Assembly (NCBI GenBank): GCA_035528515.1
Contig: DATKYL010000063.1
Coordinates: 1-33,248, forward strand
DNA: 33,248 nucleotides
Direction of reading: 5' to 3'
Source: Acidobacteriota bacterium
GTDB taxonomy: Bacteria > Zixibacteria > MSB-5A5 > WJJR01
Part shown: positions 12,945-33,248 of the stretch, piece by piece
How positions within the stretch are numbered: the first letter of the stretch is position 1
Layout of the letters: each line of letters starts with the position of its first letter
Notes under the pieces: generated by a model
Told to the model about the DNA's origin: nothing
The model's database searches: none
What the model saw: the letters and a program-made list of their open reading frames with translations, nothing else
Position numbers and translations under genes: made by a program

Positions 12945-12983
12945 TTACGTTAGGCCGATTGACAGAGGCCTGCCGCCCAGGGT

Positions 12984-13919: not shown

Positions 13920-13936
13920 GTGTCACACATGCCGCA

Positions 13937-14752
13937 TCATCGAAACGAAATGGATCCAGCGTCGAAGACCGGTCCGTCGCGGCACACACGGCGGTACGTT
14001 TCGTATCCGCTCGCGTCGCGCGCGGTCACGACGCATCCCATGCAAACGCCGAATCCGCACGGCATTGAGCGTTCCAGGGAGACCTGGCAATCGATTGCGC
14101 GGTCGGTGCAGAAGCGCGCCAGCGCTTCCATCATCGGTTCCGGCCCGCAGCCATAAACGATCATCCTGCGGTGATCGGCGCCGCTCTTCTCGATGAGGCG
14201 CGCCAGCAGATCGACCGCGGTTCCTCGCAATCCCCGGGTACCATCATCGGTGGCCCAGTAGGGCCGGAGGCCGAGCTTCGACAGTCCCATTGGGGCCAGT
14301 GCCAGCGCACGTGTCCGGGCACCCAGAATCATGACCGGCTGCGTGAGGCTGTTCCGTGATTGCGTAGCTGAGATTATCTCGCAGGCCCAGAGACGCAACG
14401 GCGCCATCCCCAGGCCACCCCCCACCAGCACCGGGATCTGGCCGCGACGCGGGGGCCGGAAGCGATTCCCGAGAGGTCCCAGGACGTCAACGGTCGTTCC
14501 GTGGGGCAGGCAGGTCAGGCAACGGGTCCCCTCGCCCAGCACTTGGAAGAGGACATCGAATGTCCCCGCGTCCGGGTCGGTCGCATAGACCGAAAACGGG
14601 CGTCGGAAGAGGTGACTCTCGCCGGGGAGCAACTGTACGAACTGCCCTGCCCGCGCCTGACCTGCGATCAGGCGGTCGGCGTACCGCTGCTGGTAGATAT
14701 CGGGTCCGATGCGACGTGATCGGACGAGTTCAGCGAGGCGCGGCCGCCTCAC
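13937..14752 (-). CDS. pyrK: Dihydroorotate dehydrogenase electron-transfer subunit (FAD and 2Fe-2S)
   Basis: It has the RPFS FAD-binding motif and the C-terminal cysteine cluster CGFGVCMGC...C typical of PyrK. Its GTG start overlaps the stop of the upstream TPR gene by 4 nt. Confidence 0.85.
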   Translation of the reverse strand: MRRPRLAELVRSRRIGPDIYQQRYADRLIAGQARAGQFVQLLPGESHLFRRPFSVYATDPDAGTFDVLFQVLGEGTRCLTCLPHGTTVDVLGPLGNRFRPPRRGQIPVLVGGGLGMAPLRLWACEIISATQSRNSLTQPVMILGARTRALALAPMGLSKLGLRPYWATDDGTRGLRGTAVDLLARLIEKSGADHRRMIVYGCGPEPMMEALARFCTDRAIDCQVSLERSMPCGFGVCMGCVVTARDASGYETYRRVCRDGPVFDAGSISFR

Positions 14753-17478
14753 GGTTTGCCGCTCTGGCTGGGGTCGAAAGGATCGATTCCGTACTTGTCG
14801 AACTCGTCGCGTTCGCGCGCCGGCGGTGTGATCGTCATCTCGAATCGGTATTGGATGTTCAGCGAGTCGGGCGGGATCGAGTCCGCCCAGAACTTTGTCA
14901 GGTCCAGCGTCGCGTTGGCCGCCTCATTGATGTCATACGAAGGCGACGGCTGCAGCACTTCATACGATGAAATCTCGCCGGCGAAGTCAATCAGGATCTT
15001 GTACACGATCACATGTTCCCCAAGGTCGGAACCGATCTCCGACTGCGGGTAGACGAAAAGGCCGACCTGTTTTGGTATGGGGGCCAGCGGCAACCGCGCG
15101 TAGGCTGCCGTTGAGTCGGCGAGTGAGTCGGCCTCGGCAAGCTCCGGCTCGGCTTGTTGCCGCGTCGCCGGCGCCTGCCGCCGCTTCGGACGTTCAATCG
15201 TAGTCTTGAGGCGTTCCTGCGACGCGCCGGCGATATCGGTCTGCGGGTATTCCGCCGCGATCTCCTCATACGCCCATATGACGGAGGAGTCCCCGGGCGG
15301 GAAGTGCCGATCGGTCAGGGCGACCACCGCGTACTCGGCTGTCGGGATCAGGCGTGACTGCGGATAGCGCTCGATGAACTCCTTTAACCGCTCGACGCCC
15401 AGGTACGCATTATCCTCTTTAAGGAAGGCCCGTTCCGCCCGCGCATACGCCCAGGCGGGATGCGCCGTGTCGGCATCGGTCCCCTGCCAACCGAGTAGCC
15501 TGATCGCATCGCCGGCGTAATCCGTGTATGGGTACTCGGCGAGGACGCGCCGCAGATGCTGGTGTGCCGCGGCGGTGTCGTGCTTCTCAAGATAGGTGTC
15601 GGCCGCACCCAGAAGGGCTTGCGCGGCGAATGGGGTTCCTGCGTACTGGTCGGCCAAGTTGTCATACTCGGTGACGGCCGAATCCGTGTAGCCGAGGTCG
15701 AAACGATACAACTCGGCCAACTGAAGTTGCGTTCGTGCCGAGACGGCGATATCGCCGTAGGCCGTGCGGCGTCGGGCGCGTTCCTCCGCGCGTCGTTCCC
15801 GTTCGACGCGGGCGGGAGTGCTCGCTTCCAGTTCAGCCCACGCCTCCAAAGCGGAATCCGACGGGGTCGGCGGTCCCAGCAGTCTGCCGAAGCCGAAAGG
15901 ATAGAGGTATCCGGGAGTGGGCGGCCCCATGAGAGAATCTTGCCCAACCAGGGACCACCACATCGAAGGCGCGAGCAGTCCGTCGCGAATCCGGTTGAAG
16001 TGAATATCGGTCCGGCTAATAAGTGGTCCGAGAGTCGGCGCCAGATCGGACGGTGGTCCGAATTTCTCCGGGGCGAGAGCCGCCGCCTCCGGAAGCGCCT
16101 CCGCCGCCTCCATTTCGACCAGTTCGTCTGTCGGTGGTGTCGGCGGGCCGTGAACCGCGAGGCCGTCGGCACGAACGATCCCGGCGGCGGCGTACTCCAC
16201 CGCGTCAACGAGAGTGTCGGGATTGATGTTCAGTGCGCGGGGGCGGGCGGCGAGCGGTGAGAAGGTGACCGCGCGCTCGATGCCCGGGAGATTATTTGGA
16301 TCGTATGGCGTGCCCGACCCGATTCTCGTCCGTTGCGTCAATTCGCCCCGACCGAGCTCTTTGCGAAACTCGGTGAGCTTGGCGATGTACGCGGAGCGGG
16401 CCAGAGCCAAGTTAGCCAATTCGCCCCGTGAGTCCTCCTGGCGGCACAGGTCGTACAGGTCTTTCGCGGAAACCAGATCCCCTTCGTCGTACTGTCGAAT
16501 TTCAGCCATCCGGAAATAGGCTTCCGCCGACCATTGAGTCAGCTCCAGCGCGGCTGCCACCTGCTCATACTGGCGCCAGGCACCGGCCTTGTCGCCGAGG
16601 TCTTTCAACCCGCGGCCCAGCATCAGGCGGATCGTGCCGATGGAATCGTAGTATTCATCCTGCTCGGCCATCGTCCGGAAAATGGCGATGCCCGAGTCAG
16701 GGTATCCCCCTTCATACCATGACTCCGCTGTGCCCAGAAGCGCCTCATAGGAAACGAGAGGTTCCTCGTCTTCAATCAGGGGTTCGTAAAGTGGGATCGC
16801 TTCGAGGGGACGTTCCATCAACCGGGTCTGCTCTGCCGCCCAGAGTCGGGACTCGAGCGCGCGGTCGGAATTGCCGTATTCGTCGAGAATCAGCGTATAG
16901 GCGGCGAGGGCGGAGTCGTGCGCCCCGGTGGCGGCAAAATACTCGCCCCGCTGGAAGATCGCCTCGGCACGCCACTGTTTCTTACGCGCGGTTTGTGCGA
17001 GTTCGCTGAATGTGCGAAAGGCCGCTTGTTGATCCCCCAGTTCCACCCGACACCGGGCGAGGTAGAGCTGCGATTCCTCCGCAAACTCCGATTCGGGATG
17101 GGTTGCCAGCAGGTCGCGGAATCGTCGTTCAGACTTGGCGAATTCGGTCATCCGGAAGTACGACACGCCGATCATGAAGAGCGCATCGTCATAATACTTG
17201 CTGTCCGGATGCTCGTCGACCACCTTCTGGGCCTTATTGATCGCATCCTCGTACAGGCGCTTGGAGGTTGATACACGTTGCCGTCCCGGGATCGGACGGT
17301 TCTCCCGTTCCGCCTTATTGAAGAGCTGCTTGGCGTTGTAGTAGGTGTTGAAATACACGCAGCCGCCGCCGGCGAGAGCTGCCGTCAGTGCGATTAGACA
17401 TACTGCCACAAGCCCTCGACGGCCGACACGGAATCGACCCGTTCGGGGTGGCGCAGATTGTCTTTCGTCCGGTATCAT
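14749..17478 (-). CDS. TPR-repeat lipoprotein with a Pro-rich linker and a TonB-C-like C-terminal domain
   Basis: Lipobox LAGGGC is followed by YFNTYYNAKQLF. Multiple TPR-like A/Y/L-patterned repeats lie in both halves. The central low-complexity region carries three GPPTP motifs. The last roughly 90 aa (VYPQSE...VIVYKILIDFAGEISSYEVLQPS...NEAA...) resemble the TonB C-terminal fold pattern. Confidence 0.8.
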   Translation of the reverse strand: MIPDERQSAPPRTGRFRVGRRGLVAVCLIALTAALAGGGCVYFNTYYNAKQLFNKAERENRPIPGRQRVSTSKRLYEDAINKAQKVVDEHPDSKYYDDALFMIGVSYFRMTEFAKSERRFRDLLATHPESEFAEESQLYLARCRVELGDQQAAFRTFSELAQTARKKQWRAEAIFQRGEYFAATGAHDSALAAYTLILDEYGNSDRALESRLWAAEQTRLMERPLEAIPLYEPLIEDEEPLVSYEALLGTAESWYEGGYPDSGIAIFRTMAEQDEYYDSIGTIRLMLGRGLKDLGDKAGAWRQYEQVAAALELTQWSAEAYFRMAEIRQYDEGDLVSAKDLYDLCRQEDSRGELANLALARSAYIAKLTEFRKELGRGELTQRTRIGSGTPYDPNNLPGIERAVTFSPLAARPRALNINPDTLVDAVEYAAAGIVRADGLAVHGPPTPPTDELVEMEAAEALPEAAALAPEKFGPPSDLAPTLGPLISRTDIHFNRIRDGLLAPSMWWSLVGQDSLMGPPTPGYLYPFGFGRLLGPPTPSDSALEAWAELEASTPARVERERRAEERARRRTAYGDIAVSARTQLQLAELYRFDLGYTDSAVTEYDNLADQYAGTPFAAQALLGAADTYLEKHDTAAAHQHLRRVLAEYPYTDYAGDAIRLLGWQGTDADTAHPAWAYARAERAFLKEDNAYLGVERLKEFIERYPQSRLIPTAEYAVVALTDRHFPPGDSSVIWAYEEIAAEYPQTDIAGASQERLKTTIERPKRRQAPATRQQAEPELAEADSLADSTAAYARLPLAPIPKQVGLFVYPQSEIGSDLGEHVIVYKILIDFAGEISSYEVLQPSPSYDINEAANATLDLTKFWADSIPPDSLNIQYRFEMTITPPARERDEFDKYGIDPFDPSQSGKP

Positions 17479-20104: not shown

Positions 20105-21442
20105 TTGCCGAGGATTCCCATGACCATGCCTGCCCCGCCCCGATCGTTCGTATTTCCGCCATCACGAGGACGATGGCTGCGCCGGACCGCGTGCCTCCTC
20201 CTGGCGGCAGTGATTCTCGCGCCCGTGGCCGCTCCCGCCCAGTCGCTCTTGATCCCCATGGACGAAACCCAGCAGGATCACCTCAAAGCCTATGGGGTGG
20301 CTTTCCACCTGCTGACACGGGGGGTCAAGGTCGAGTGGCTGCTGAATTACCGCGGCGGTTCGTTTCTGGCCAACTACTACGCCGACATCGCCGATACCTG
20401 CGACGTGCGGGGGGTCGTCTATGATGCGATCGGCGACGCACAGGTCGCCGCGATCAAGGCCACCATCGAAGACGAGAACATGGAGTCGGTCCTTCTCGAG
20501 AAGGCACCGGCGATCGCGATTTATGCTCCGTCCGGCAATGAGCCCTGGGATGATGCCGTCACGCTCGCCCTCACCTACGCGCAGATCAACTACACCGTGA
20601 TCTGGGATGAGGAGGTGCTAAACGGCGATTTGGACCTGTACGACTGGCTGCATCTCCATCACGAGGACTTCACGGGGCAGTACGGCAAGTTCTACGGATC
20701 GTATCGCAATGAGCTGTGGTACCGTCAGGACGTCCAGATGAACGAGGCGATGGCGCAGAAGCTCGGCTTCCGCAAGGCCTCCGACCTGAAGCTGGCCGTC
20801 GCCCTGACCATCAAGTCGTATGTCACCCGCGGCGGTTTCCTCTTCGCCATGTGTTCGGCGCCGGAGACTTTGGACATCGCGCTGGCCGCCGGCGACGTCG
20901 ACATCGTGCCCTCGCCTTTCGATGGCGATCCCCCTGATCCCAACTGTCAGGCGGGCCTCGACTACAGCCGCAGCATGGCGTTCACCGATTTCACACTCTC
21001 GCTCGATCCCAACGAGTACTCGCATTCTGACATCGACACGTCGCCCGACCGCATTTCCTCGCGGTTCAATCCGGCCGGCGACTACTTCCGCCTGTTCGAG
21101 TTCTCCGCGAAACTGGATCCGGTGCCGACGATGCTGGTGCAGTGTCATGTCGACGCGGTCAGCGGGTTCATGGGGCAGACGACGGCCTTCCGCAAGAGCC
21201 TTGTCAAAAAGTACGTCATCCTGCTGGGCGAGAATGAGGGGCAGAACGAGGTGCGCTATCTCCATGGGAATCTGGACAAAGGCACGTTTACGTTTCTGGG
21301 CGGGCACGATCCCGAGGACTACCAGCATCTGATCTACGATCCGCCGACGGAACTCGCCCTGCACAAGAACTCTCCCGGTTATCGTTTGATCCTCAACAAT
21401 GTTCTCTTCCCGGCCGCGCGCAAGAAGGACCGCAAGACCTGA
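20105..21442 (+). CDS. Secreted conserved protein of unknown function
   Basis: The ORF is 445 aa with a signal peptide (LLLAAVILAPVAAPAQS) and a soluble, non-repetitive body. I recognise no catalytic motif with confidence. Confidence 0.7.
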   Translation: MPRIPMTMPAPPRSFVFPPSRGRWLRRTACLLLAAVILAPVAAPAQSLLIPMDETQQDHLKAYGVAFHLLTRGVKVEWLLNYRGGSFLANYYADIADTCDVRGVVYDAIGDAQVAAIKATIEDENMESVLLEKAPAIAIYAPSGNEPWDDAVTLALTYAQINYTVIWDEEVLNGDLDLYDWLHLHHEDFTGQYGKFYGSYRNELWYRQDVQMNEAMAQKLGFRKASDLKLAVALTIKSYVTRGGFLFAMCSAPETLDIALAAGDVDIVPSPFDGDPPDPNCQAGLDYSRSMAFTDFTLSLDPNEYSHSDIDTSPDRISSRFNPAGDYFRLFEFSAKLDPVPTMLVQCHVDAVSGFMGQTTAFRKSLVKKYVILLGENEGQNEVRYLHGNLDKGTFTFLGGHDPEDYQHLIYDPPTELALHKNSPGYRLILNNVLFPAARKKDRKT

Positions 21443-22729: not shown

Positions 22730-23371
22730 CTAATACCAGTGGAGCCAGTCGAAGAAGAGGAACTGCACGCGCTGGATCAGAAGCGAGATACGGGCCATTA
22801 CCGTGAAGCCGAATGCGGCGCCGAAGCCGATCATCAGAACACCGATGCCGAACTTGGCGGTCACGCCGGTCACGCCTTTGTGTTCCTTCGAGAAGAAGAA
22901 ATAGACAAGGCCGGCGACGACGCCAACGAGGATCAGCGTGTTGTTGAAGCTGGTCAGGAACAGCGCGCCGGGTGAACGCCAGTATTCGATCAGTCCCACC
23001 GTGCCGTTGAGTTGCTCGATGACCTTGGCGCGCATCTCCAGCGGGATGGCAACGCCGGTGGCGATGCCGATGTAAAAGGCGAGTGGGTAACGAGAGATCC
23101 ACGAGGCCTTGCGGGAAAACCGTGTCCACATCAGAGCGCCCAGGATCGTGGGGAATATGTACCACCACTGCCCATCCATCAGTCTCTGATAGACGTTCGG
23201 GATCGCCACGTTGTGGAACAGGATCAGCACCCAGTAACCGGCGGAGAGCCCGACGGCCATGTGCTCGGCGAACTTATAGAACGGGTTATCCTTGTAGAGG
23301 AACGAGAATATCGCCAGCGTGATGAACGCCGCGATCGTCGTTGCAATGAGTGTTCCCCAGTCCATACTCAA
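22730..23371 (-). CDS. Module 1 subunit D: polytopic membrane protein, unknown family
   Basis: The ORF is 213 aa with about 6 TM helices. It shares IFSFLYKDNPFYKF, G.SAGYW, WISR.PLA, YFFFSKEHKG and SLLI.RV.FLF.DWL with D2 (26338-27051). The start is either TTG 23371 or ATG 23365. Confidence 0.85.
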   Translation of the reverse strand: MSMDWGTLIATTIAAFITLAIFSFLYKDNPFYKFAEHMAVGLSAGYWVLILFHNVAIPNVYQRLMDGQWWYIFPTILGALMWTRFSRKASWISRYPLAFYIGIATGVAIPLEMRAKVIEQLNGTVGLIEYWRSPGALFLTSFNNTLILVGVVAGLVYFFFSKEHKGVTGVTAKFGIGVLMIGFGAAFGFTVMARISLLIQRVQFLFFDWLHWY

Positions 23372-23379
23372 TCCGGTTC

Positions 23380-24237
23380 CTAAACGCTTCCGCTTCCCTG
23401 GGGCAGCGACTTCCGCCGCGCGAAGTACGCGACGTTGCCGACGATGATAAACAGGATAATGATGGCGTGGGCGATCATCTGGACTGACATCCCCTCCACC
23501 GCCGGGCCGGGCGTGTTAACCAGCATCTCGTACTGAGCCGCGCCTTCCAAGCCCCCTAAGATTCCAAAAATCTGTCCGGTCTGCAGGTAGGGGTAGTAGT
23601 CGGTCGCCATGACTCCCGTGACCCCGATCGCCAGCGGAATGCCGTAGCGGCCGTTGCCGTAGGAAATCCACCAGTCGGTCGCCGAGGTCCCGGAGATGTT
23701 GATGACCGCCTTCACGTCGTCATAATTCTTGATGTCTCTCATCATCGGAAGGTCGTCCAAGGGCACGTTGTAGTAGTCGTTTGGGAAGGGAATACGGTAG
23801 TTCTGCCCCATCCCGAGGATGATGAGAGCGGGATACGGTTTATATCCCAGAAAGACGTAATCGACCCCGTTCTCGATGCGCTCGCCGGTGCGCTCAAAGT
23901 GTCGTGCGACCGCCGTGTCAAGCGCTCCGGCCGCCAGCGCCGGACCGAACTGGTGCAGCGACGAGACCACGACCCTGATCCTCTTCTCAAAGCACTGCTT
24001 CAGGAATGCCAGTGTCATGGGCTGCAATTCGGCCATAACCGAAGGATCGTAGTCCATGGCCAGATGGATCGCATCGCCGGCCTGCAGCGAATCGACGAAG
24101 CCGTGAATACGGCGAGCTTCCTGGGAGATGGGGATGGGAATAATGATACGCGCCTTGACGCCGGCCATGACGGCCAGCCCCAGGATGAGGTACACCCAGC
24201 GCCGATCAAGGGCCATCAATCGTTCAAACATGCCCAT
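23380..24237 (-). CDS. Module 1 subunit C: bitopic protein (N-terminal TM, roughly 230-aa predicted periplasmic domain, C-terminal TM), unknown family
   Basis: It shares RLMA.DRR, DYDP....ELQPM, YPY...GQ..GILGG..GAA..E.LV and HAIII.FIIVGN.A.F with C2. ATG 24237 shares one base with the B1 stop (TGATG), which implies translational coupling. The tracked ORF begins one codon earlier at TTG 24240. Confidence 0.85.
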   Translation of the reverse strand: MGMFERLMALDRRWVYLILGLAVMAGVKARIIIPIPISQEARRIHGFVDSLQAGDAIHLAMDYDPSVMAELQPMTLAFLKQCFEKRIRVVVSSLHQFGPALAAGALDTAVARHFERTGERIENGVDYVFLGYKPYPALIILGMGQNYRIPFPNDYYNVPLDDLPMMRDIKNYDDVKAVINISGTSATDWWISYGNGRYGIPLAIGVTGVMATDYYPYLQTGQIFGILGGLEGAAQYEMLVNTPGPAVEGMSVQMIAHAIIILFIIVGNVAYFARRKSLPQGSGSV

Positions 24238-24860
24238 CAATCACGCCCCAGGAATGATCGCTCGATGCCGAGAACGACCTTGAGCGCCGTCGAGACAATG
24301 CCCAAGCCCACTCCGATGATGATGGCGCGCTTGGCGGCAAGGTTAGGAACAGTGAGAATCCACCGGGACAGTTCCGACTCCGGATCAGTAAGCGGTCCCA
24401 ACGGGAAAAAACGCAGCATGACGATCACCGCCGAAACCAGGAGGATCGTGGCCAGGACCGAGCGCGCCCGGAAGGCACGGTAGGCGGCCGATGCGATGAA
24501 AAACGCCAAGAGCGAGAACATGGTCGACGAGACCGGGATGATCATGTTGTCGAACATCCAGCGGACGGGGGGCGCGTCAGCTCCGCGCGTATCGATAAAC
24601 CCGGCGGCCATGATCGTGGTCAGCGCCACCAGCGTTACGATCGAATATTGCCAGTTATCCTGCCGCTGCCGCACCCGGGTGATCGAGACGCGCACCAGCG
24701 AGATAATGCCCAGCGTGAGGGCGAACATGCCGATGATCGGCGGCCAGTCGAGCGCGATAAACTCGTAGAAGAACTCGGAGGTCTCGTGCGGGATATGGTA
24801 CTGGAATACCATAAAGACGCCGAGAATGAAGATGATAATTATGGGCAGTTGCCGTTTCAT
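24237..24860 (-). CDS. Module 1 subunit B: polytopic membrane protein (about 6 TM), unknown family
   Basis: It shares MKR..P.I, Q..IPHE, STMF..LAFF.ASA.YRAFRAR and RAI.IG..LGIVST.L...LGIERS with B2. Confidence 0.85.
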   Translation of the reverse strand: MKRQLPIIIIFILGVFMVFQYHIPHETSEFFYEFIALDWPPIIGMFALTLGIISLVRVSITRVRQRQDNWQYSIVTLVALTTIMAAGFIDTRGADAPPVRWMFDNMIIPVSSTMFSLLAFFIASAAYRAFRARSVLATILLVSAVIVMLRFFPLGPLTDPESELSRWILTVPNLAAKRAIIIGVGLGIVSTALKVVLGIERSFLGRD

Positions 24861-24868
24861 CGCCGTGT

Positions 24869-26224
24869 CTACAAACTCATCCGGAATATCGCGAGAATCC
24901 AGTCAACGTTAAACGCCGCACCAACCACGCCCAGTCCCAGAACCGCCAGGAGGCACACCTTGAACCAGTCCTGCGCCTTGAGCGTGCCTAAGAGCTTCGG
25001 CTCCCGTCCCAGATACGCCGACGCCGCGTACAGCTCCTCGCCGATCAGGGTGTAGTCGCAGGCGACGACGAAAAACGGAATCTGCGTCACCCGATCGGTC
25101 CCCGATATCTGAATCGATCCCGCCAGCGATCCGGTCTCGGCCAGGATCAGCGATTCGGCGTAGAACACGCCCAAATAGAAGTTGGTCGCGGTCTGACGGC
25201 GCAGCATCGTCCCGTTGACCGCTGCGACATAGGGAAACTGATCCTGGGTCACGAAGTAGACAATGTCTTCATTGTAATCGTCCGGACGCCCGGCATCCAG
25301 GTAGGCCTGCTTGACCGTCTCCTGCGCAACCGACATGACGACCGCATCATAGCACGGGACCAAGAGCTCCGTCCGATGCTCGGCGACCTTCTTGGCGACG
25401 CGCGACAGAATCGAGAAGGACGCGATCGTGGCGATTTCGTCCGCGGCGCCGAGTCCCAGGACATACAGAATCGGCCGGTTCATCTCCGTGGCGCGGCCGA
25501 TGGCCTCATCCACGGCGTCGATTCCGGCCAGCGGACGGATATAGAGTTTTCTGCCCCTCTGGGCGGCGCCGATGAATCCTAAGATCAGGACCGTATAGAG
25601 CACAGCGGGGAAACCGATGTGGAGGATGCGGTCGAGATGAAACAGATGGCCGCGCGAATGTACCGGTGGCGTTGTCGGCGAGGAGGCTCGCCCGCCCTCG
25701 GCGGTCACGGCGATCACGCGGTACTGAAAATCGACGTAGTCGGGGATGAAATCGCGGCTGTCCCTGATCTTGCCGCCGCGATTCTCCAGTGATGTCGCGC
25801 CGGAAGGCACCTGCCCGACCGTGTCCCATTCCCCGCTGGTGAATCGCCAGCCAGCCTCACCGTAGGCATTGCTCGCGAAGATCCGATACGAGGGATCATC
25901 CGCCGGGACTTCGTCCACCGGGAACGGACCCTCCATCTTCGGGGTCCGCAGGACTTCGTACATAAGAACGTTGTTGCGACCCCGGATGTCGTCGGCGGAA
26001 AGGTCCCACACCACGCCGATGGCGTGGCCGTTATCGTTGGGGGTATCGGTCGCCTGAACGTTGCTCGGGGGGGCGGGCGGGATCGGAGCCGGGGCGGTGG
26101 TGGTGTCGACGGCAGTCGAATCAGAAGGTTCCTGGGCGTAACTCGCCGGCGTTCCTGTCAGGAGCGCCCACGACAAACACGCGGCAATGACCGATCCGAT
26201 GAAGAAATGTCTGCGTGTCGCCAT
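24869..26224 (-). CDS. Module 1 subunit A: signal peptide, Fn3-like domain, TM, roughly 200-aa predicted cytoplasmic domain, C-terminal TM; unknown family
   Basis: The Fn3-like pattern is PPAPPSNVQATDTPNDNGHAIGVVWD...FQYRVIAV. The TM is followed by a basic patch (RGRK). It shares L.IR..AG..AVDEA.GRATEM.R, ETVKQAYLDAGRPD.Y.ED.V, F.AESLILAETG and IGEEL.AASAYL.REPK with A2. I take ATG 26224; the tracked ORF starts at TTG 26227. Confidence 0.85.
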   Translation of the reverse strand: MATRRHFFIGSVIAACLSWALLTGTPASYAQEPSDSTAVDTTTAPAPIPPAPPSNVQATDTPNDNGHAIGVVWDLSADDIRGRNNVLMYEVLRTPKMEGPFPVDEVPADDPSYRIFASNAYGEAGWRFTSGEWDTVGQVPSGATSLENRGGKIRDSRDFIPDYVDFQYRVIAVTAEGGRASSPTTPPVHSRGHLFHLDRILHIGFPAVLYTVLILGFIGAAQRGRKLYIRPLAGIDAVDEAIGRATEMNRPILYVLGLGAADEIATIASFSILSRVAKKVAEHRTELLVPCYDAVVMSVAQETVKQAYLDAGRPDDYNEDIVYFVTQDQFPYVAAVNGTMLRRQTATNFYLGVFYAESLILAETGSLAGSIQISGTDRVTQIPFFVVACDYTLIGEELYAASAYLGREPKLLGTLKAQDWFKVCLLAVLGLGVVGAAFNVDWILAIFRMSL

Positions 26225-26252
26225 CAATTGAGTGTCCGCTCAAGCCTTTCCA

Positions 26253-26281
26253 AACGTACTGTCAGCCGTCGATCTTTGCAA
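26253..26281 (-). promoter_or_regulatory. Candidate internal promoter in front of module 1 (minus-strand TTGCAA-N17-TACGTT)
   Basis: On the minus strand, TTGCAA lies at 26281-26276 and TACGTT at 26258-26253, with a 17-nt spacer. It sits inside the 110-bp gap between the D2 stop and the A1 start. Confidence 0.3.
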
Positions 26282-26337
26282 CGTTTTTGATTCGACGAGG
26301 AGGGCTGCATTCCCGCCCGGCGAACCTGACCCAAAAC

Positions 26338-27051
26338 TCACTGGACCAGCCGCAGCCAGTCGCTGAACAGGAAGTCGACCCGCCCGATGAGAAGCGACAT
26401 ACGGCTCATGACCGTATAGCCGAAGGACGCGCCGAACGTAATCATCAGAAACCAGATGCCGATCTTGGCGGCACCGCCGAAAGCCCCTTTATGCTCCTTC
26501 GAGAAGAAGAAGTAGACGACGCCAGTCACCGTACCGAAGGCCACGACGATGTTGCCGATCGTCTGATACCAGTCCAGCACGCCGCCGGTGAAGACCTGAA
26601 TCGGCATGATCGTGTTCTCGAGCTGGCGCATGGCGTTGGACTGGAGATAAGTGATAAACCAGAGTCCCGCGGTCGCGCCGACGATGACGGCCAGCGGCCA
26701 GCGGGAGATCCACCCGATTTTCGGGGCCAGCCGCATGAGCATCATGAAGCCGAAAATGCCGGCGAGAAGATAGGCGATCCAGATCCACCCGAACGAAGCC
26801 GTACCGAGCGTGTCGATCAACTTGGCCAGCAGGTTCTGATAGTAGAGCTGGACAAACCAGTAGCCGGCGGAAACGCCGACGAAGACCGATTCACAGAATT
26901 TATAAAACGGGTTGTCCTTGTACAGGAAGGAGAAGATTCCGAGCGTGAAGAACGCGCCCAGAGTGACCGCGAGGCCATAACTGTTCCACGACAGCGCGAA
27001 GAGAACCGCTGAGATGATGAGAACGATGATCGCCGGTAAACGGATGTTCAT
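26338..27051 (-). CDS. Module 2 subunit D: polytopic membrane protein, paralogue of 22730-23371
   Basis: The ORF is 237 aa with an ATG start and the same motif set as D1. It has an extra N-terminal hydrophobic helix of about 24 aa. Confidence 0.85.
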   Translation of the reverse strand: MNIRLPAIIVLIISAVLFALSWNSYGLAVTLGAFFTLGIFSFLYKDNPFYKFCESVFVGVSAGYWFVQLYYQNLLAKLIDTLGTASFGWIWIAYLLAGIFGFMMLMRLAPKIGWISRWPLAVIVGATAGLWFITYLQSNAMRQLENTIMPIQVFTGGVLDWYQTIGNIVVAFGTVTGVVYFFFSKEHKGAFGGAAKIGIWFLMITFGASFGYTVMSRMSLLIGRVDFLFSDWLRLVQ

Positions 27052-27069
27052 ATCATGGTCCCTGAACTG

Positions 27070-27966
27070 CTACACTTCCTCAGTGCCTTTCAGGCGCGAC
27101 GGTCGGCCGCCGACGAAGAAAGCGATGTTGCCCACGATGATGAAGAAGATGATGATCGCGTGGGAAAAAGTCTGCGACAGCATCGCCCGTGTGCCAAAAC
27201 CGCCCTTGACACCGACGAGGACCTCAAACTCCGCTGCACCCTTCATGCCGCCTAGAATCCCCGTCAATTGTCCGGCTCGGTAGTACGGGTAGACCATCGG
27301 TGCCTGGACGGCCGTATTGCCGGCGCCGATCCGGGCGTGGAAGCGGTCGCCCGCAAGCTGCACCCACTCAATCGTGCCGGGATACCCCGACGAGAGACTG
27401 AAGACGAAATCGACATTATTGAAATTGGTCACGCCCCGCATGAGATCGAGTTCGTCAACCGGCGTACCACGGTAATCGCGCGGGAAAGCGGCGGCGAAAG
27501 ACGAGCCCATCCGCTGGATGACAAACTCGCGCCCTTCCTGAAAGCCCAAGTTTACCCAATCGATCCCATATTTGAAGGTCTTGCCGTTATAGGTAATAAC
27601 GTCGCCGACCTCGCCCTCGATGACGGACGCCAGCGCGAGGTTGGCCTGCTGCGGACCCTGCGGCCAGAGCCCCATGATGACCATCTTGAGGTCGTTTTCA
27701 AGACAGTAGGTGATGGCCGCAACCGCCATCGGCTGAAGTTCGGGGGCGGACGGCGGGTCGTAGTCAAACGGGAAGAGCACTTTCGAGCCCGCCGGCAGTT
27801 CCTTCAAGGCGTTGTAGAGGGATTCGACCTCGGGCGTGATGTGGATCTTCGGGGAGATCGGCAGGAAGAACGGCGCCGAGACGGCAATCCCGACCGCCAG
27901 GAATATCACCCGGCGATCAATCGCCATCAGCCGTTGCCAGAATCCGCCTTGTGTCCCTTTGGCCAT
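27070..27966 (-). CDS. Module 2 subunit C: bitopic protein, paralogue of 23380-24237
   Basis: The ORF is 298 aa with an ATG start and the same TM-domain-TM layout and motifs as C1. Confidence 0.85.
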   Translation of the reverse strand: MAKGTQGGFWQRLMAIDRRVIFLAVGIAVSAPFFLPISPKIHITPEVESLYNALKELPAGSKVLFPFDYDPPSAPELQPMAVAAITYCLENDLKMVIMGLWPQGPQQANLALASVIEGEVGDVITYNGKTFKYGIDWVNLGFQEGREFVIQRMGSSFAAAFPRDYRGTPVDELDLMRGVTNFNNVDFVFSLSSGYPGTIEWVQLAGDRFHARIGAGNTAVQAPMVYPYYRAGQLTGILGGMKGAAEFEVLVGVKGGFGTRAMLSQTFSHAIIIFFIIVGNIAFFVGGRPSRLKGTEEV

Positions 27967-27986
27967 TGTGTCAGTGCTCGTTTCCG

Positions 27987-28820
27987 CTACTCGCCGCCAA
28001 TGTGCGAACGTTCGATCCCCAGGATGATCCGCAGGGATGTTGAGACGATACCCAGTGCAATGCCGATCATGATCGCTCGCTGACCGGCGGCGTTAGGGAA
28101 GTTCATCACCCAATCGGCTGCCCCCGACAGAAAACCGCCGGTGGTGGCCCAAGCTCCGCTGAACGCGTCGGGTGTCAGAGTGCCCAAAAATTCCGCCAAA
28201 GGTACGCGTCCCGCCATCACAAAGAAGGCCGCGACCAGGAGCATCGCCGCTTCCCTGTTCCGGGCCCGGAAGGCGCGGTACGATGCCGAGGCGACGAAAA
28301 ACGCCAGCATCGCGAACATCGTCGATGAGAGTGGCGTGTAGACGCTACGGTACAGATAGTCGTAATGCGTCCCAGGCTCCTGGAAGGTCCGTCCGCCCGA
28401 AAACGCGAGCCCGGCAATGAGCATAATCACGAAAGAAGCGATCGTGGTCAGAGCAAAGAACCAGTCCGGCTTCATCTTGGAGCGCGAGTACTGCCCCAAG
28501 GCCATGAGCAGGAAGGCGACTGCAAAAAGGATCAGCGGGAAGCGGCCGGCCAGAAACTCATCCGGCGCCCCGACGATCCCCACGATGAGCGCTACGACCA
28601 CTATCGCCGACGTCACGAGCAACATCGGCTTGCCGAGTTTGTCGAGCGACAACTTGATGAGGTTCAGTGCACCCAGCCAGATCGCGCAGGCCTCGATAAT
28701 CGAGAACCAGTCGGAGAAGATGTCCGACAGCGAACTGAACGGTTCATGGGGGATGAAAAACTGGACAATGAAGACGATCCCGACGACGCCGGTGATGATC
28801 AATGGGATTTCGCGCTTCAT
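27987..28820 (-). CDS. Module 2 subunit B: polytopic membrane protein, paralogue of 24237-24860 with an insertion of about 70 aa
   Basis: The ORF is 277 aa and shares the N-terminal and C-terminal motifs of B1. An additional hydrophobic block (KPMLLVTSAIVVVALIVGIV...FPLILFAVAFLLMAL...FFALTTIASFVIMLIAGLAF) suggests about 2 extra TM helices. Confidence 0.85.
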   Translation of the reverse strand: MKREIPLIITGVVGIVFIVQFFIPHEPFSSLSDIFSDWFSIIEACAIWLGALNLIKLSLDKLGKPMLLVTSAIVVVALIVGIVGAPDEFLAGRFPLILFAVAFLLMALGQYSRSKMKPDWFFALTTIASFVIMLIAGLAFSGGRTFQEPGTHYDYLYRSVYTPLSSTMFAMLAFFVASASYRAFRARNREAAMLLVAAFFVMAGRVPLAEFLGTLTPDAFSGAWATTGGFLSGAADWVMNFPNAAGQRAIMIGIALGIVSTSLRIILGIERSHIGGE

Positions 28821-28841
28821 AATCCAGATCGTCCGTTTGTC

Positions 28842-30119
28842 TTATCGCACCAGGAACCAGTGTGATATGTTGTAGACGCCGAAGGTGGCCAGCAGGATCC
28901 CACCGATGGCAAACAGGAGAATGAAGAACTTGCCGACGTCCTGCCCTTTGAGCGATCCCAATTGCTTCGGCTCCCTCGACAAATAGGCCGAGGCCGCGAA
29001 TAGCTCCTCGCCGATCAGCGTGTAGTCGCACGCGGCGACGAAGAACGGGAGCTGCGCGGGCATGGCAGTCCCCGCTATCTGTATGGCCCCGATTGAGTTG
29101 CCGGTTTCGGCCAGAATCAGCGATTCGGCGAAAAACGCCCCCATATAAAAGATGGTGGCCGGCTTTTGACGCACAAACATGCCGTCGACACCCGCTGCGT
29201 AACCGAACTGGTCGTCGGTCAGGTAATGGACCATGTCCTCGTCGTAGGCATCGGGACGCCCGGCATCGAGATAGGCTTGTTTGACCGTTTCGCGGGCGGC
29301 GACCATGACCAGCGATCGCGGCACCGGCACATCGAGTTTGGCATCATAGGTGGCCGCCATCTTGGCGACACGTCCGAGAATAGTCACTCCGGCGATCGTC
29401 TGGACATTGTTCATGTCCTGGATACCGGGAATGAAGAAGATCTTGCGGCCCATCTCAGTGGCGCGCCCGACTGCCTCGTCGACCGCCTCCAGACCGGCGA
29501 TCTTGCGGATGAAGAGCTTTTCGCCGCCCTTGGCCTTGGAGATGAAGTACAGAATCGAGGAGGCGAGGATGACTACCGCGAGCAGCGAGTTAAGGCGCCC
29601 CATATGGATCCACTGAGCCGATGATCGCGCGGGTTGTGACGGCCGCGAGATGGATACCGGCGGCTCCACATTCGGATGGTCGGGCGAGGGCAGTGCGATC
29701 ACCTCGACGACATAATAGTAGTCGATGCCGTCCTCGACGTCCCCGTCGTTGAACTCGGTCATCCCGGCGGTCATCGTCCCGACGGTATCGAACGGGCCGT
29801 TGGGCGATCTCCCGCGCAGGAGCTGATACGCGCCGACATTGTCCAGCCCCGCGCCTTCGTCCGGGGACTTATCCCAGCGGACGATGATCGCGCCCCCGGC
29901 ATCATTCGGGGCGTCATCGGCGAGGATATTGGCGGGCGGCGCCGGTGGCGTCAAGGCCGCTTCCACAATGGCGGTTGTATCGGTAACCTCTGCCGGCTCC
30001 TGGGCTGCGACGTTCCGCGCACCGAACGCAACAATCAGAGCCAGCGTGGCAATGACAGCAGTAAAGACCCTTGGATGTGACGTGGGCCGTCGGGCCGATA
30101 TGATCGTTGGTGTTGGCAA
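28842..30119 (-). CDS. Module 2 subunit A: signal peptide, Fn3-like domain, TM, soluble domain, TM; paralogue of 24869-26224
   Basis: The ORF is 425 aa. TTG at 30119 is the only in-frame start I could find ahead of the signal sequence. The Fn3-like pattern is PPAPPANILADDAPNDAGGAIIVRWD...DYYYVVEV, and the cytoplasmic-domain motifs are shared with A1. Confidence 0.8.
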   Translation of the reverse strand: MPTPTIISARRPTSHPRVFTAVIATLALIVAFGARNVAAQEPAEVTDTTAIVEAALTPPAPPANILADDAPNDAGGAIIVRWDKSPDEGAGLDNVGAYQLLRGRSPNGPFDTVGTMTAGMTEFNDGDVEDGIDYYYVVEVIALPSPDHPNVEPPVSISRPSQPARSSAQWIHMGRLNSLLAVVILASSILYFISKAKGGEKLFIRKIAGLEAVDEAVGRATEMGRKIFFIPGIQDMNNVQTIAGVTILGRVAKMAATYDAKLDVPVPRSLVMVAARETVKQAYLDAGRPDAYDEDMVHYLTDDQFGYAAGVDGMFVRQKPATIFYMGAFFAESLILAETGNSIGAIQIAGTAMPAQLPFFVAACDYTLIGEELFAASAYLSREPKQLGSLKGQDVGKFFILLFAIGGILLATFGVYNISHWFLVR

Positions 30120-30196
30120 TCGACCGCTTCTTCTACCGTGGCGATTCTTCTTTAGTATCGGTCCGGCCCGCGGGTGAGGAGTTCGCGAGCATGCGG

Positions 30197-30225
30197 AACC
30201 TACTTTGGTTCCGAAGGGGTGTCAA
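30197..30225 (-). promoter_or_regulatory. Candidate promoter in front of module 2 (minus-strand TTGACA-N17-TAGGTT)
   Basis: On the minus strand, TTGACA lies at 30225-30220 and TAGGTT at 30202-30197, with a 17-nt spacer. It sits in the 261-bp gap between the 375-aa gene and A2. The -10 element overlaps a 6-bp hairpin, GGAACC-tacttt-GGTTCC (30195-30212). Confidence 0.3.
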
Positions 30226-30320
30226 GTGCAATTGACCGATCTCACCCCTCCACGGTCATACTATCCGGAGTCCCTGTGGACCAGCTCACTAAGATGTAGG
30301 GGACAGTGATGCGTCGCGGC

Positions 30321-30355
30321 CCCGCCCCGTTCTCGCGCGGAGAAGACGGGGCGGG
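30321..30355 (-). terminator. Strong GC hairpin just downstream of the 375-aa gene (possible attenuator, partial terminator or processing site)
   Basis: A 10-bp G/C stem, CCCGCCCCGT-(15 nt)-ACGGGGCGGG, ends 26 nt from the stop codon on the minus-strand transcript. No U-tract follows, so it is not a canonical intrinsic terminator. Confidence 0.35.
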
Positions 30356-30380
30356 CAGGATGTTCAAGAAGGGAGGTTTT

Positions 30381-31508
30381 TCAGATTTCCTCGATCATCT
30401 CGACGTTGGCACGGGGGATGATGGCCCGCTTCTTGCCATCGAATTCAACCTCGAGTATGCGCGCCAACGATTCGGATTCGAGCCTCTGCAGCGGAGCCGG
30501 CAAACCGGTCACGGTCCCCAGATGACCGAAGTACGGCTGGCGGATCACCCGAACCGGGGTGCCGATCACAAGGCCGGCGATTTCGCCGGCACCGTCGCCG
30601 CCGCCAACCTCGACCCCTTCTTTCGGTATGACCACTTCAGGTCGGATGACACCGGCACGGATCTGGGTGGCGCCGTTGATCACGGCCATTTCACCCTCGT
30701 GGCGTTTGAAAAGCTGAAAGGTCTTGTCGGCCATCGCGATCGTGCCGAACCCTTCGGTCACGACCAGCGTGATCCCCAGATCTTCCGCGCCGGTGATCGC
30801 GACGCCCAGATCGTAACCGAGGAAATTCCGCAGGTCGCGGTCGTCGAAGCCGCCGGCCACGATCCCGCGGGCCTTGACCTCTATCGCCTTTTTGAGTGCC
30901 TCGGCGGTGACGCGCGAACCGCCGATCAGGATCTTGCCGGCGCAGTCGGGCGTGATCTTGGCCTCGTCGAGGTCCTCCGATGCGTCGGCACACAGAACCT
31001 TGATTTCCCCGTGGGTCTCGCCGCCGATCCCGAAGATTCCCTGCACGAAGGAGCCCACACAGGCAACCGAGACACCTTCCTCCGGGTGCACCTTGACCAC
31101 GGTTCCTTTCAGGTACGCTTTGACCTGGACCGGCACCGGCATGCCGCGTAAGAGGACCTGGCCGGTGATATGGGAGACGTTCTCAACGGTCCCATCGAAC
31201 TTTGCTTTGCACTCGGAGCGGAACAGCCCAAAGAACGAACTGGAGCGGGCGATCACTTCGCCTTCGGTGATCGGCTCTCCTTCCTTCTTGAGCATGCACT
31301 CTTCGATATCCTCAGGCGGGACGCCCAGAATGTTGGCGACGTTGACCGGTTGGACCGGGCCGGGCAAATGGGTTTGTGCCACGACCGTATCGGGCTCGAC
31401 GTTGTCGCCCAGCTTGACCAGGACCTCACCCTTGAGAGGGAGGATGCGTTCTTTGACCAACCGAGTCTTTTCGGTGACTTTGAGTCCGGGGGTGTATGCG
31501 CGTGCCAT
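30381..31508 (-). CDS. Soluble 375-aa protein of unknown family that leads the duplicated modules (called E here)
   Basis: It has an ATG start preceded by a purine-rich GAGAGAGA, and no TM segment or signal peptide. The N-terminal segments LKGEVLVKLGDNVEPDTVVAQ and KKEGEPITEGEVIA resemble barrel-sandwich hybrid half-motifs. A central Gly-rich region reads ILIGGSRVT...ARGIVAGG...TLVVTEGFG. The C-terminal patch IGTPVRVIRQPYFGHLGTV looks SH3/KOW-like. It has no P-loop and no Cys cluster. Confidence 0.8.
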   Translation of the reverse strand: MARAYTPGLKVTEKTRLVKERILPLKGEVLVKLGDNVEPDTVVAQTHLPGPVQPVNVANILGVPPEDIEECMLKKEGEPITEGEVIARSSSFFGLFRSECKAKFDGTVENVSHITGQVLLRGMPVPVQVKAYLKGTVVKVHPEEGVSVACVGSFVQGIFGIGGETHGEIKVLCADASEDLDEAKITPDCAGKILIGGSRVTAEALKKAIEVKARGIVAGGFDDRDLRNFLGYDLGVAITGAEDLGITLVVTEGFGTIAMADKTFQLFKRHEGEMAVINGATQIRAGVIRPEVVIPKEGVEVGGGDGAGEIAGLVIGTPVRVIRQPYFGHLGTVTGLPAPLQRLESESLARILEVEFDGKKRAIIPRANVEMIEEI

Positions 31509-31598: not shown

Positions 31599-32306
31599 CT
31601 ACTCCTCAAACTGAATCGTGGCGGTGACGGTACCGGCTTCGGTGACCGTCGCTCCCACACTGCCCCGGTCGCTCCCCTTCCAGGCGTACAGGGTAATGTC
31701 CGCATTGATTTCGCACTGCTCGCCGAGGGTGCAGTCGAACTTGTCGCCCAGTGGGATCAGGCAGCGCGCGATCGAGAACCGGCCGTCGGCATCGGTGACC
31801 GCCAGCGGACGCGTGCTGGCATTGAGCAGCGTCTCGACATCCTCGGGATCGACGAAGACCAGGAATTCCGGCAGCGGGTCGAACGACTCGCAGTCGTACG
31901 GATTCAGGCGGTACAGCCCCGGCGGGGCCATGAGTCCGTCGTTGTCGTGTCCGGTCCACGTGCAGACCTGGTCTCCCTCACAGGTGAAGCGGGTGACCGA
32001 TTCGCCGCACCAGTCGGACACGTCGACACAGGTGCTGTCGCCCACCCCGGCGGGACTCGCCTCGGGAACGGGCTCGATGACAAGAGGATACGGAATAGCG
32101 ACAGACAGGACCTCGCACGCCACCGTGTAATCGATCAGAATACCCGCACCGGCGACCGGCTGCCCCTGCGCGTCCAGCACGCGACCGGTGATGGCGATAT
32201 CACTCGCCTCGTCGTCATCGTCGTCTGAACAGGCAACCATCGTACAGCACAGGGCGCAGGAAAGGACAATGGCCGCCCACCGGGTCAGGTCAGATCGTTG
32301 CGACAT
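31599..32306 (-). CDS. Lipoprotein with a CarboxypepD_reg-like N-terminal beta-sandwich and an FlgD-Ig-like segment; paralogue of 32365-33084
   Basis: Its signal ends in MVAC and is followed by an acidic run (SDDDDDE). It also shows ITGRVLDAQGQPVAGAGILI, ...WTGHDNDGLMAPPGLYRL and LAVTDADGRFSI. Confidence 0.75.
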   Translation of the reverse strand: MSQRSDLTRWAAIVLSCALCCTMVACSDDDDDEASDIAITGRVLDAQGQPVAGAGILIDYTVACEVLSVAIPYPLVIEPVPEASPAGVGDSTCVDVSDWCGESVTRFTCEGDQVCTWTGHDNDGLMAPPGLYRLNPYDCESFDPLPEFLVFVDPEDVETLLNASTRPLAVTDADGRFSIARCLIPLGDKFDCTLGEQCEINADITLYAWKGSDRGSVGATVTEAGTVTATIQFEE

Positions 32307-32364: not shown

Positions 32365-33084
32365 TCACTGTATGGCCACGTCGACCGCAGTCGAGTGACC
32401 TCTGCTGATCTCCGCGGGTTCGGAACCGGCGGTCTCGTCTTTCCAAGCACAGATCCGGACCGATGGGGACACCGTTCTCTCCCGGATGACGGCTCCGGCG
32501 CTGTCGAGTTCCGGGACAGGTTCACCGACAGGGACCAAACCCCAGCCCACAGCGTAATGGCCGTCGGCGTCGGTGAGGACGAGATAGGCATCGGTGCGTG
32601 TCATTTCCAGACACGCTGCCGAGAGGAGAAATGCCTTCGTCGCCGAGACATTACCCCATTCGAGATGGTAGTAGTAGAGGCCGTCCGGCAGCGCGGTCCC
32701 GTCGTCGGCTATCCCGTCCCAGCACTCCTCATAAGTTCCGGCGGGGCGGGCTCCGTCAATGGCCGTCCGCACCGAGCGGCCGCTGTAGTCGGTGATCCAC
32801 AGCGTGACATCGGCGGCTTCGGTGAGGTCGAAGCGGATACAGGTTTCCGGTCGTGGGGCGGTGGCATCGGCGCTCCGGCCCCGAGTTTCCTCATCGACCA
32901 GGCTGTACTCAACAGCGACCCGGGCGCTGCGGACCGGGTTCCCGTAAACGTCACGGACGCGGCCGGTGACGGCGTACGTTGCGCTGCTGTCGGTCGAATC
33001 GGAACAGCCTGAACCGGCCAGCAGGACCGCCCCCAGCAGGGCTGTGGCGGCGATCAAACGTGTGACGCGCGTGGATTCACGCAT
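32365..33084 (-). CDS. Lipoprotein, paralogue of 31599-32306 (CarboxypepD_reg-like plus FlgD-Ig-like)
   Basis: Its signal ends in LLAGSGC. It shows VTGRVRDVYGNPVRSARVAV, then VTLWITDYSGRSVRT...PAGTYEECWDGIADDGTALPDGLYYYHL, which fits the FlgD-Ig-type pattern, and LVLTDADGHYAV. Confidence 0.75.
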   Translation of the reverse strand: MRESTRVTRLIAATALLGAVLLAGSGCSDSTDSSATYAVTGRVRDVYGNPVRSARVAVEYSLVDEETRGRSADATAPRPETCIRFDLTEAADVTLWITDYSGRSVRTAIDGARPAGTYEECWDGIADDGTALPDGLYYYHLEWGNVSATKAFLLSAACLEMTRTDAYLVLTDADGHYAVGWGLVPVGEPVPELDSAGAVIRERTVSPSVRICAWKDETAGSEPAEISRGHSTAVDVAIQ

Positions 33085-33109: not shown

Positions 33110-33248
33110 CTACAACCGCTTGAGGGCCTCTGCGGGATAAATGTCCAATAGGCCCATCCATTCCTTCAACTTGGCGACCCGGATCTTGTCGTCGCTGGGG
33201 ACCTGGAACGGCCGGCCGCGGCCGTCGAGGATGATCCCCACCACGCCG
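33110..33248 (-). CDS. 3' end of an unidentified CDS; upstream-most gene of the minus-strand cluster, truncated by the window edge
   Basis: By hand translation the minus-strand frame is open from the window edge to TAG (33110-33112). It reads ...GVVGIILDGRGRPFQVPSDDKIRVAKLKEWMGLLDIYPAEALKRL*. The fragment is too short for the ORF track, and I cannot assign a family. Confidence 0.5.
   Translation of the reverse strand, partial: GVVGIILDGRGRPFQVPSDDKIRVAKLKEWMGLLDIYPAEALKRL

Follow-up and report, generated by a model that had tools for sequence, protein, structure and literature searches.

A tandemly duplicated four-gene membrane module in Zixibacteria and its GlmL/MutL-like ATPase partner: a candidate cell-envelope machine

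The gene cluster and its protein families

The DNA analyzed here is contig DATKYL010000063.1, a stretch of 33,248 nucleotides (nt; hereafter the window) from a genome named Acidobacteriota bacterium and placed among the Zixibacteria in its GTDB lineage. Region 22730-31508 holds nine consecutive open reading frames (ORFs) on the minus strand, in the order E, then A2-B2-C2-D2, then A1-B1-C1-D1. An earlier sequence-only reading of this DNA had described them as a duplicated four-gene membrane module led by a soluble protein, and all nine ORFs are present. They appear to belong to a gene set made up of a GlmL/MutL-like ATPase, the soluble protein E and one to three paralogous A-B-C-D modules, which we tentatively interpret as an envelope machine. 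The nine genes, in the direction of transcription, are:

30381-31508, minus strand: E, 375 amino acids (aa); predicted soluble adaptor with a barrel-sandwich hybrid, a beta barrel, an alpha/beta domain and a KOW/SH3-like domain
28842-30119, minus strand: A2, 425 aa; alpha-type; signal peptide, periplasmic Fn3 domain, transmembrane helix (TM), cytoplasmic DUF6754 domain, TM
27987-28820, minus strand: B2, 277 aa; eight TM, a six-TM core plus a two-helix insert
27070-27966, minus strand: C2, 298 aa; TM, predicted periplasmic domain of ~225 aa, TM
26338-27051, minus strand: D2, 237 aa; six-TM core plus one extra N-terminal helix
24869-26227, minus strand: A1, 452 aa; gamma-type paralogue of A2, matching PF20539 at 363 bits
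24237-24860, minus strand: B1, 207 aa; paralogue of B2, six TM
23380-24240, minus strand: C1, 286 aa; paralogue of C2, its start overlapping the end of B1 by 4 nt
22730-23371, minus strand: D1, 213 aa; paralogue of D2 and final gene of the cluster

Topologies were derived from hydropathy and the positive-inside rule (charge distribution). Within the modules the gaps between genes are 21, 20 and 18 nt (module 2) and 8, -4 and 8 nt (module 1). Between units the gaps are 261 nt (E to A2) and 110 nt (D2 to A1). The two modules had also been called clear paralogues with preserved gene order, and BLASTP bears this out: identity is 42% for A2 and A1 (E = 4e-99), 30% for B2 and B1 (6e-38, with a 51-aa indel), 36% for C2 and C1 (1e-58) and 46% for D2 and D1 (2e-56). 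No third A-B-C-D module lies within the window.

The topologies previously described for the four proteins were reproduced. A is predicted to consist of a cleavable signal peptide, an Fn3 domain, a TM, a basic patch, a domain of ~200 aa and a final TM. B1 has six predicted helices with both termini inside and B2 has eight; the two-helix insert (residues 61-118) is missing from B1 and from nearly all relatives (top-residue frequency 0.06). C runs from a basic N-terminus through a TM, ~225 residues and a second TM to a basic tail, and D has about six TM, with one more at the N-terminus of D2. The motifs that had been picked out in B (YRAFRAR and LGIERS) and in D (YKDNPFYKF and FFSKEHKG) are nearly invariant across ~170 family members. 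At two loci the gamma-type B gene encodes ~590 aa, about three times the usual length (L063, 16154-17932; L072, 16413-18188), which suggests a fusion or a large insertion.

The sequence-only reading had found no assignable signature in any of the five protein types, which holds for B, C and D; A has a clear family and E has end domains that its model and its relatives point to. A2 matches Pfam DUF6754 (PF20539) at 412.2 bits over model positions 2-256 of 257, and A1 does so at 362.8 bits, against a gathering cut-off of 27. The match spans the cytoplasmic domain of A together with its flanking helices, and DUF6754 is carried by 120 of 120 A homologues among the matches listed. The Fn3 domain was recovered both by profile and by structure prediction: the A-family profile matches titin Fn3 domains among PDB sequences (single-domain E-values down to 1.6e-5), and residues 63-166 of the AlphaFold2 (AF2) model, predicted with a local distance difference test score (pLDDT) above 90, match Fn3 structures in Foldseek (E = 1e-5, probability 1.0). 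Foldseek returned only Fn3 domains for the A model, which masks any match to the DUF6754 domain.

B, C and D gave no match in Pfam, NCBIfam, PADLOC or PDB sequences; the Pfam scan covered 28-36 diverse members per family at E-values up to 1. Weak TMD0_ABC (PF24357) matches occur in 10 of 33 B-family members (best E = 2e-6), and one is precomputed, as weak, for a B-family member in L092. This ABC-transporter domain is also a helical bundle; the score of B1 in the window, 13.8 bits, falls short of the cut-off of 27, B lacks an attached ABC core, and the similarity may be compositional. None of the nine window proteins has a match above noise to ABC, MFS or RND transporter families in Pfam or NCBIfam, Walker and ABC signatures included, and the anti-phage models in PADLOC match neither these proteins nor the ATPase. 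C resembles Wzz-type proteins in topology only, as 0 of 36 C-family members match Wzz (PF02706) or GNVR. As the sequence-only reading had held, A-D are thus unassigned to any known transporter, secretion or motility system by profile matching in Pfam, NCBIfam, PADLOC and PDB sequences. Family membership is established only for DUF6754 and Fn3 (both in A) and for PF13941 (the neighboring ATPase).

Each family is nonetheless large. The clusters homologous to D number more than 7700, every one of them hypothetical and devoid of Pfam domains, and A and E have at least 8000 each. Because each window gene has thousands of homologues, these are not chance ORFs. Alignment of the family profiles against one another with hhalign gave no pair a probability above 3.5%, and the five families are therefore unrelated; an internal pseudo-symmetry suspected by eye, between the cytoplasmic domain of A and the C domain and between B and D, was rejected on the same values.

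Conservation, distribution and genomic setting

Synteny was assessed in 79 species-level genome loci, one genome per species. The A-B-C-D order and tight spacing are kept in 79 of the 79, which span Zixibacteria, Ignavibacteria, Eisenbacteria, Latescibacterota, Stahlbacteria, TA06, Cloacimonadota and GN15; WOR-3 is present among the protein matches. The conserved synteny with only DUF or hypothetical annotation that the sequence-only reading had named as support for its interpretation thus exists, across at least seven candidate phyla, with the homologues named 'hypothetical' or 'fibronectin type III domain-containing' in their source records (the wrong name 'NusG' also occurs among homologues). 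In a collection of species-representative genomes, at least 589 stretches encode a D relative.

Three tandem modules, in the order alpha-beta-gamma, were found in 31 loci; two modules (alpha-gamma, as in the window) in 11-15; and a single module in 16-23, some of them on truncated contigs. In clustering of all four families, A2-D2 of the window group as alpha and A1-D1 as gamma. This agreement implies that the duplication is ancient and that the copies have been kept as distinct orthologues; judged from the sequence groupings, it is an ancient split into orthology groups and not a local event. A very basic protein of ~118 aa is encoded ~400 nt downstream of the last module in at least 25 loci (e.g., L042, 15285-15641), often followed by pyruvate phosphate dikinase (PPDK); the small gene is missing from the window.

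Conservation is uneven along the proteins. Between the window paralogues, identity reaches 73% over residues 331-397 of A, predicted to be cytoplasmic, where the top-residue frequency across the family is 0.87; it is 36% for the Fn3 domain of A and 32% for the C domain, both predicted to be periplasmic. The conserved B and D motifs all lie on predicted cytoplasmic loops, and overall the constraint on the module is strongest on its cytoplasmic parts and weakest on its periplasmic ones. A single E gene accompanies up to three modules. Taken together, the conserved cytoplasmic face and the one E for several modules are most simply read as a shared docking platform. For the same genome pairs, median pairwise identity is 78% for the ATPase, 71% for the housekeeping neighbor PPDK, 67% for E and 55-57% for A-D.

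Upstream of E the cluster continues. The sequence-only reading had its genes right and ended it at 31508; three more minus-strand features extend it to the window edge, where codons of the ATPase are found:

31599-32306, minus strand: lipoprotein-like ORF, 235 aa, exported; weak FlgD_ig and CarboxypepD_reg matches, MVAC near the N-terminus
32365-33084, minus strand: lipoprotein-like ORF, 239 aa, exported; FlgD_ig match (E = 2e-11), weak CHU_C type IX sorting match
33110-33247, minus strand: 3' end of a GlmL/MutL-like actin-fold (ASKHA) ATPase gene, the last 45 codons plus stop, cut by the window edge

Read in the direction of transcription, the window thus has the cut ATPase gene, the two lipoprotein-like genes with FlgD_ig matches, E and then the alpha and gamma modules. 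Identical gene calls, including the 45-aa ATPase fragment, are found on the public contig L082, and the public record P0241 is a protein identical to the 425-aa A2. The fragment is 60% identical to the last 45 residues of the 617-aa orthologue in L030 (tblastn, E = 5e-10), which matches Pfam MutL (PF13941) over its full length (433 bits, E = 1e-129). The phosphate motifs of the ATPase, DCGSTTTK and DIGGATTD, read as intact. Profile searches of PDB sequences with A-E and the ATPase yielded, apart from the Fn3 matches of A, just a weak match of the ATPase to the archaeal actin homologue Ta0583 (E = 0.006).

E in the window has no Pfam match of its own. Its relatives match RnfC_N (E-values down to 3.7e-9), NQRA_N (2.6e-7), biotin-lipoyl and KOW domains, and its AF2 model (pLDDT 79.5) begins with a beta-rich domain (residues 11-125 all-beta), continues with a small barrel and an alpha/beta domain, and ends in an SH3-like barrel. 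Foldseek returned KOW/Tudor barrels only, for the C-terminal part, with no E-value below 1e-3; like the search with the A model, this gives no lead on function. On the model and these family matches, E probably runs from an RnfC/NqrA-type barrel-sandwich hybrid to a KOW-like domain, the likeness of its N-terminal part to NqrA and RnfC being weak. The E family comprises 3020 clusters at 50% identity. A weak RraA match (E = 0.057) and a GG..T..A..G.V.GG pattern had hinted that the alpha/beta domain is a 'swivelling' domain like those of RraA and phosphoenolpyruvate-utilizing enzymes; hhalign against the alignment of the neighboring PPDK gave a probability of 0.4%, and we rejected this candidate.

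Clustering of flanking ORFs showed that a 617-aa ATPase gene adjoins E in 26 loci. E adjoins the modules in at least 24 of the 79 loci, and the MutL-like ATPase gene, co-directional or divergent, does so in 26; the linkage of E and ATPase to the modules is kept in co-directional, divergent and reversed orders. ATPase and E are moreover fused in two separate protein clusters (P0374 and P0487), in proteins of 995 and 1003 aa. On the marine contigs L084 and L085 a single A-B-C-D module begins no more than 49 nt after the fusion, so that five genes make up a minimal form of the system. Close upstream of the other fusion, a contig with the source name Ozemobacteraceae, which we take to be a lineage of Riflebacteria outside the Fibrobacteres-Chlorobi-Bacteroidetes (FCB) group, carries a gene of the D family (E = 3e-66). 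E, which the sequence-only reading had cast as leader of the module, is better seen as the partner of the GlmL-like ATPase. The ATPase-E pair is itself a wider two-gene cassette: on the non-FCB-looking contigs L087, L088 and L090 it occurs without A-D and with a longer E (457-475 aa), followed in L087 by a 95-aa gene.

The same pair links the system to Tol-Pal genes. In L094, ATPase and E stand at the front of a complete Tol-Pal operon, followed in order by TolQ, TolR, TolA, TolB, the OmpA-type Pal and a TPR protein resembling CpoB. This arrangement recurs in L093 and in about ten genome loci (e.g., L013, L014, L025, L027 and L065), where the modules lie alongside in divergent orientation. In WOR-3 and Stahlbacteria, ExbB-ExbD-TonB genes come a few genes after a single module, and in Ozemobacteraceae (L086) the ATPase-E fusion overlaps the start of a Wzz/GNVR polysaccharide co-polymerase gene. 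The repeated linkage to Tol-Pal and ExbBD-TonB lends indirect support to a role in the cell envelope. Ahead of ExbB-ExbD-TonB, L066 (10060-13000) and L092 (4591-7763) carry a gene with a PatA_N/DUF4388 domain and then four or five small ones that match nothing in Pfam; these may replace E and ATPase in Stahlbacteria and WOR-3. The possibility that A-D are diverged Tol/Exb components was examined and rejected: hhalign against alignments of the neighboring TolQ, TolR and TolA gave probabilities of at most 5.4%, and A-D have no Pfam match to PF01618 (MotA/ExbB/TolQ) or PF02472 (ExbD/TolR).

Several other genes surround the system. A lipobox-like LAGSGC can be read in the translation of ORF 32365-33084, which is probably a passenger gene inserted behind the ATPase gene, ahead of E. 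In other genomes this position is taken by another exported protein (254 aa, with a signal peptide and a C-terminal TM), and in L080 an M4 peptidase with a Por_Secre_tail sits between E and A. Past D1 the window has a convergent ERCC4 nuclease gene on the plus strand. Further away, a 909-aa TPR_6/YfiO-domain protein (14749-17478, minus strand) is followed by pyrK-, pyrD- and pyrF-like genes (12048-14752, minus strand); on L084 and L085 a TPR_6/YfiO protein gene followed by DHO_dh lies a few kb from the fused system, so this neighborhood may be a conserved wider synteny. The TPR_6/YfiO domain mix also occurs in the CpoB-like TPR genes of L093 and L094. Two long ORFs of the window lack a Pfam match, one of 445 aa with a signal-peptide-like N-terminus (20105-21442, plus strand) and one of 563 aa (8740-10431, minus strand), around which AT skew is unusually high (0.30 at 9001-10000). 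A promoter and terminator scan over the cluster gave counts no higher than in shuffled sequence, Rfam and tandem-repeat searches found nothing, and plasmid records contained no match to E or A2.

A possible envelope machine and its alternatives

We tentatively propose that the gene set encodes an envelope machine of the inner membrane whose organization or power comes from the cytoplasm and whose target is a process in the periplasm or outer membrane related to Tol-Pal; this extends the sequence-only reading of a candidate undescribed envelope complex, which the synteny and the profile searches support. Each module would most likely be a four-subunit inner-membrane complex of ~16 helices, exposing the Fn3 domain of A and the ~225-aa domain of C to the periplasm and, to the cytoplasm, a very conserved platform to which A contributes its DUF6754 domain and B and D their conserved loops. 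This platform, common to every module paralogue, would be the docking site of the ATPase and of E, which is present in single copy; the two would couple a nucleotide-dependent conformational change to the process across the membrane, which might lie in envelope maintenance, in division, or in exporting or assembling some component of the envelope. Different specificities would then come from the periplasmic parts, which diverge between the paralogous modules. We infer the union of A-D in one complex, the docking of E and ATPase, the use of ATP as energy source and the existence of a substrate from the observations above.

A number of points weigh against this proposal. In L087, L090 and L094 the ATPase-E pair has no A-D genes nearby, and L089 has E by itself; E is missing from the 7-10 kb upstream in about half of the module loci; and Latescibacteria keep E-A-B-C-D with the ATPase not adjacent. 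The adjacency to Tol-Pal could be gene order inherited within one lineage. Actin-fold ATPases at membranes are more often scaffolds than motors. The most conserved stretch of A (residues 338-393) has a pLDDT below 50 in the AF2 model, which would fit a segment that folds only against partners. Finally, the last TM of C carries an invariant polar stripe (Q265-H269-N280 in C2, in an alignment of ~170 sequences), which on sequence would equally fit an ion-conducting device coupled to the proton-motive force.

That stripe also counts towards the likeliest alternative, in which the modules form an ion- or solute-translocating complex (a secondary transporter or an H+- or Na+-coupled device), with E peripheral in the manner of NqrA or RnfC and the ATPase serving only as an assembly or repair chaperone. 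Such a complex would account for the layout reminiscent of NQR and RNF, with a soluble E whose N-terminal domain is putatively of RnfC_N/NQRA_N type, polytopic 6-TM subunits and a periplasmic subunit with an N-terminal TM. D adds an invariant Glu at the start of a helix and, near its end, a Gly-rich stretch, FGASFGYT, that could be a re-entrant hairpin; and GlmL-type proteins are thought to be chaperones of B12 enzymes. Nonetheless, neither the window proteins nor the 28-36 members per family examined for B, C and D match Rnf-Nqr (PF02508), NqrB/RnfD (PF03116), FMN_bind or a transporter family at E-values up to 1. The ~170-sequence alignments contain no conserved Cys in B, C or D, no S/TGAT-type flavin-attachment motif in C and no conserved mid-membrane Asp or Glu, and the strongest conservation is on cytoplasmic surfaces and not in helices. 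We therefore consider a transporter of this kind unlikely.

We are more doubtful still of a membrane-anchored enzyme complex that makes or modifies an envelope lipid or glycan, with sites in the DUF6754 domain, the C domain or both. The AF2 model gives a confident Rossmann-like beta-alpha core at residues 210-330 of A, which would suit an enzyme, and the DUF6754 domain holds invariant polar residues (GRATEMG, AESL..AETG, IQI.GT, CDYTLIGEEL) at a density typical of active sites. C has invariant acidic residues as well (DYDP, E76, D136 and D164), and the gene overlapped by the fusion in L086 is of the Wzz type. Similarity to an enzyme family is, however, absent in Pfam, NCBIfam and PDB sequences, genes for sugar, lipid or polyprenol metabolism are not consistently adjacent, and three paralogous sets of four subunits would be unusual for an enzyme.

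The contrast between variable periplasmic and conserved cytoplasmic parts, and the presence of several paralogues with one common cytoplasmic partner, are what one would expect if the modules were trans-membrane sensors whose Fn3 and C domains detect periplasmic signals and whose platform relays them to E and the ATPase. Yet kinase, cyclase, HAMP, PAS and receiver domains are absent from every component in Pfam and NCBIfam, ~16 helices per module go far beyond the needs of signaling, and the slow evolution and housekeeping-like neighborhood suit a structural or transport role better, which makes sensors very improbable. We all but dismiss the notion that A-D are co-transcribed but functionally separate, with E and ATPase as mere neighbors and no single system: E and ATPase do stand alone in some lineages, and many module loci lack them nearby, but the order and the tight or overlapping spacing are invariant in 79 of 79 loci at phylum-level distances, all four genes have been duplicated together, repeatedly, an ATPase-E fusion directly precedes a module, and the linkage persists whether the order is co-directional, divergent or reversed.

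An envelope machine linked to Tol-Pal would, if that proposal is correct, be a major missing piece of the cell-envelope biology of the FCB group. The gene set is large, with as many as 14 genes in six protein families, four of which lack any Pfam family; its pace of evolution is as slow as that of housekeeping genes, and it is found in at least several hundred species-level genomes of phyla with few or no cultured members. Because the ATPase-E pair also occurs outside the module context, a role established here would annotate thousands of proteins now mis-annotated as 'glutamate mutase L' or 'NusG-like'.

Comparison with known systems

Judged from sequence, the system matches no characterized one and appears to be undescribed. 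A literature search (DUF6754, PF13941, glutamate mutase L, Tol-Pal with glutamate mutase, Zixibacteria clusters) returned nothing relevant. DUF6754, of which A1 and A2 are clear members, is a catalog entry without function, structure or literature, and it covers one of the five protein types. The ATPase differs from GlmL/MutL, component L of glutamate mutase, in its length (~620 aa, with an extra C-terminal domain), in being paired or fused with E, and in its linkage to modules and to Tol-Pal. B12-binding or mutase (GlmS/GlmE) domains are not found among its neighbors in L080, L084, L085, L087, L090, L093 and L094; the ATPase lacks the glutamate-mutase context that defines the presumed role of GlmL.

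In outline the parts list resembles that of NQR and RNF, with a soluble subunit whose putative RnfC_N/NQRA_N-type domain is matched by relatives of E, two ~6-TM subunits and one TM-periplasmic subunit in one operon. The membrane subunits have no sequence similarity to those of NQR and RNF, however, and lack Fe-S, flavin and NADH motifs; the later domains of E differ, ending in KOW, and A has no counterpart. With Tol-Pal and ExbBD-TonB the likeness is one of setting and reach: the adjacency is repeated, ATPase and E come first in several tol-pal operons, and both span the envelope with parts that reach into the periplasm. Tol, in contrast, draws on the proton-motive force through a MotA/ExbB-type stator, and the module has no such stator.

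The likeness to PilMNO, GspLM, MreBCD and MlaFEDB is an analogy between parts lists and no more. MlaFEDB has a similar set of parts, with an ATPase and an accessory protein in the cytoplasm, a bitopic protein whose domain lies in the periplasm, and polytopic proteins of the permease type; the folds and families differ, the ATPase here is actin-fold and not ABC, and MlaE, MCE and STAS gave no matches. PilM-PilNO, GspL-GspM, MreB-MreCD and FtsA, none of whose families was matched in Pfam or NCBIfam, offer an analogy in architecture, as an actin-fold cytoplasmic protein that works with bitopic and polytopic inner-membrane partners reaching into the periplasm. Beside these, the gene set may represent an unrecognized class of envelope machine, a reading we hold with some reserve, found in candidate phyla of the FCB group and some lineages near it, in which ATPase and E drive or organize the modules alongside Tol-Pal in division, in export or in the upkeep of the outer membrane, and the membrane subunits are unrelated to known transporter, secretion or motor families. 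It would then offer a rarely seen coupling of an actin-fold ATPase with a membrane complex made of modules, and the gene set offers a concrete target for multimer modeling and cryo-EM.

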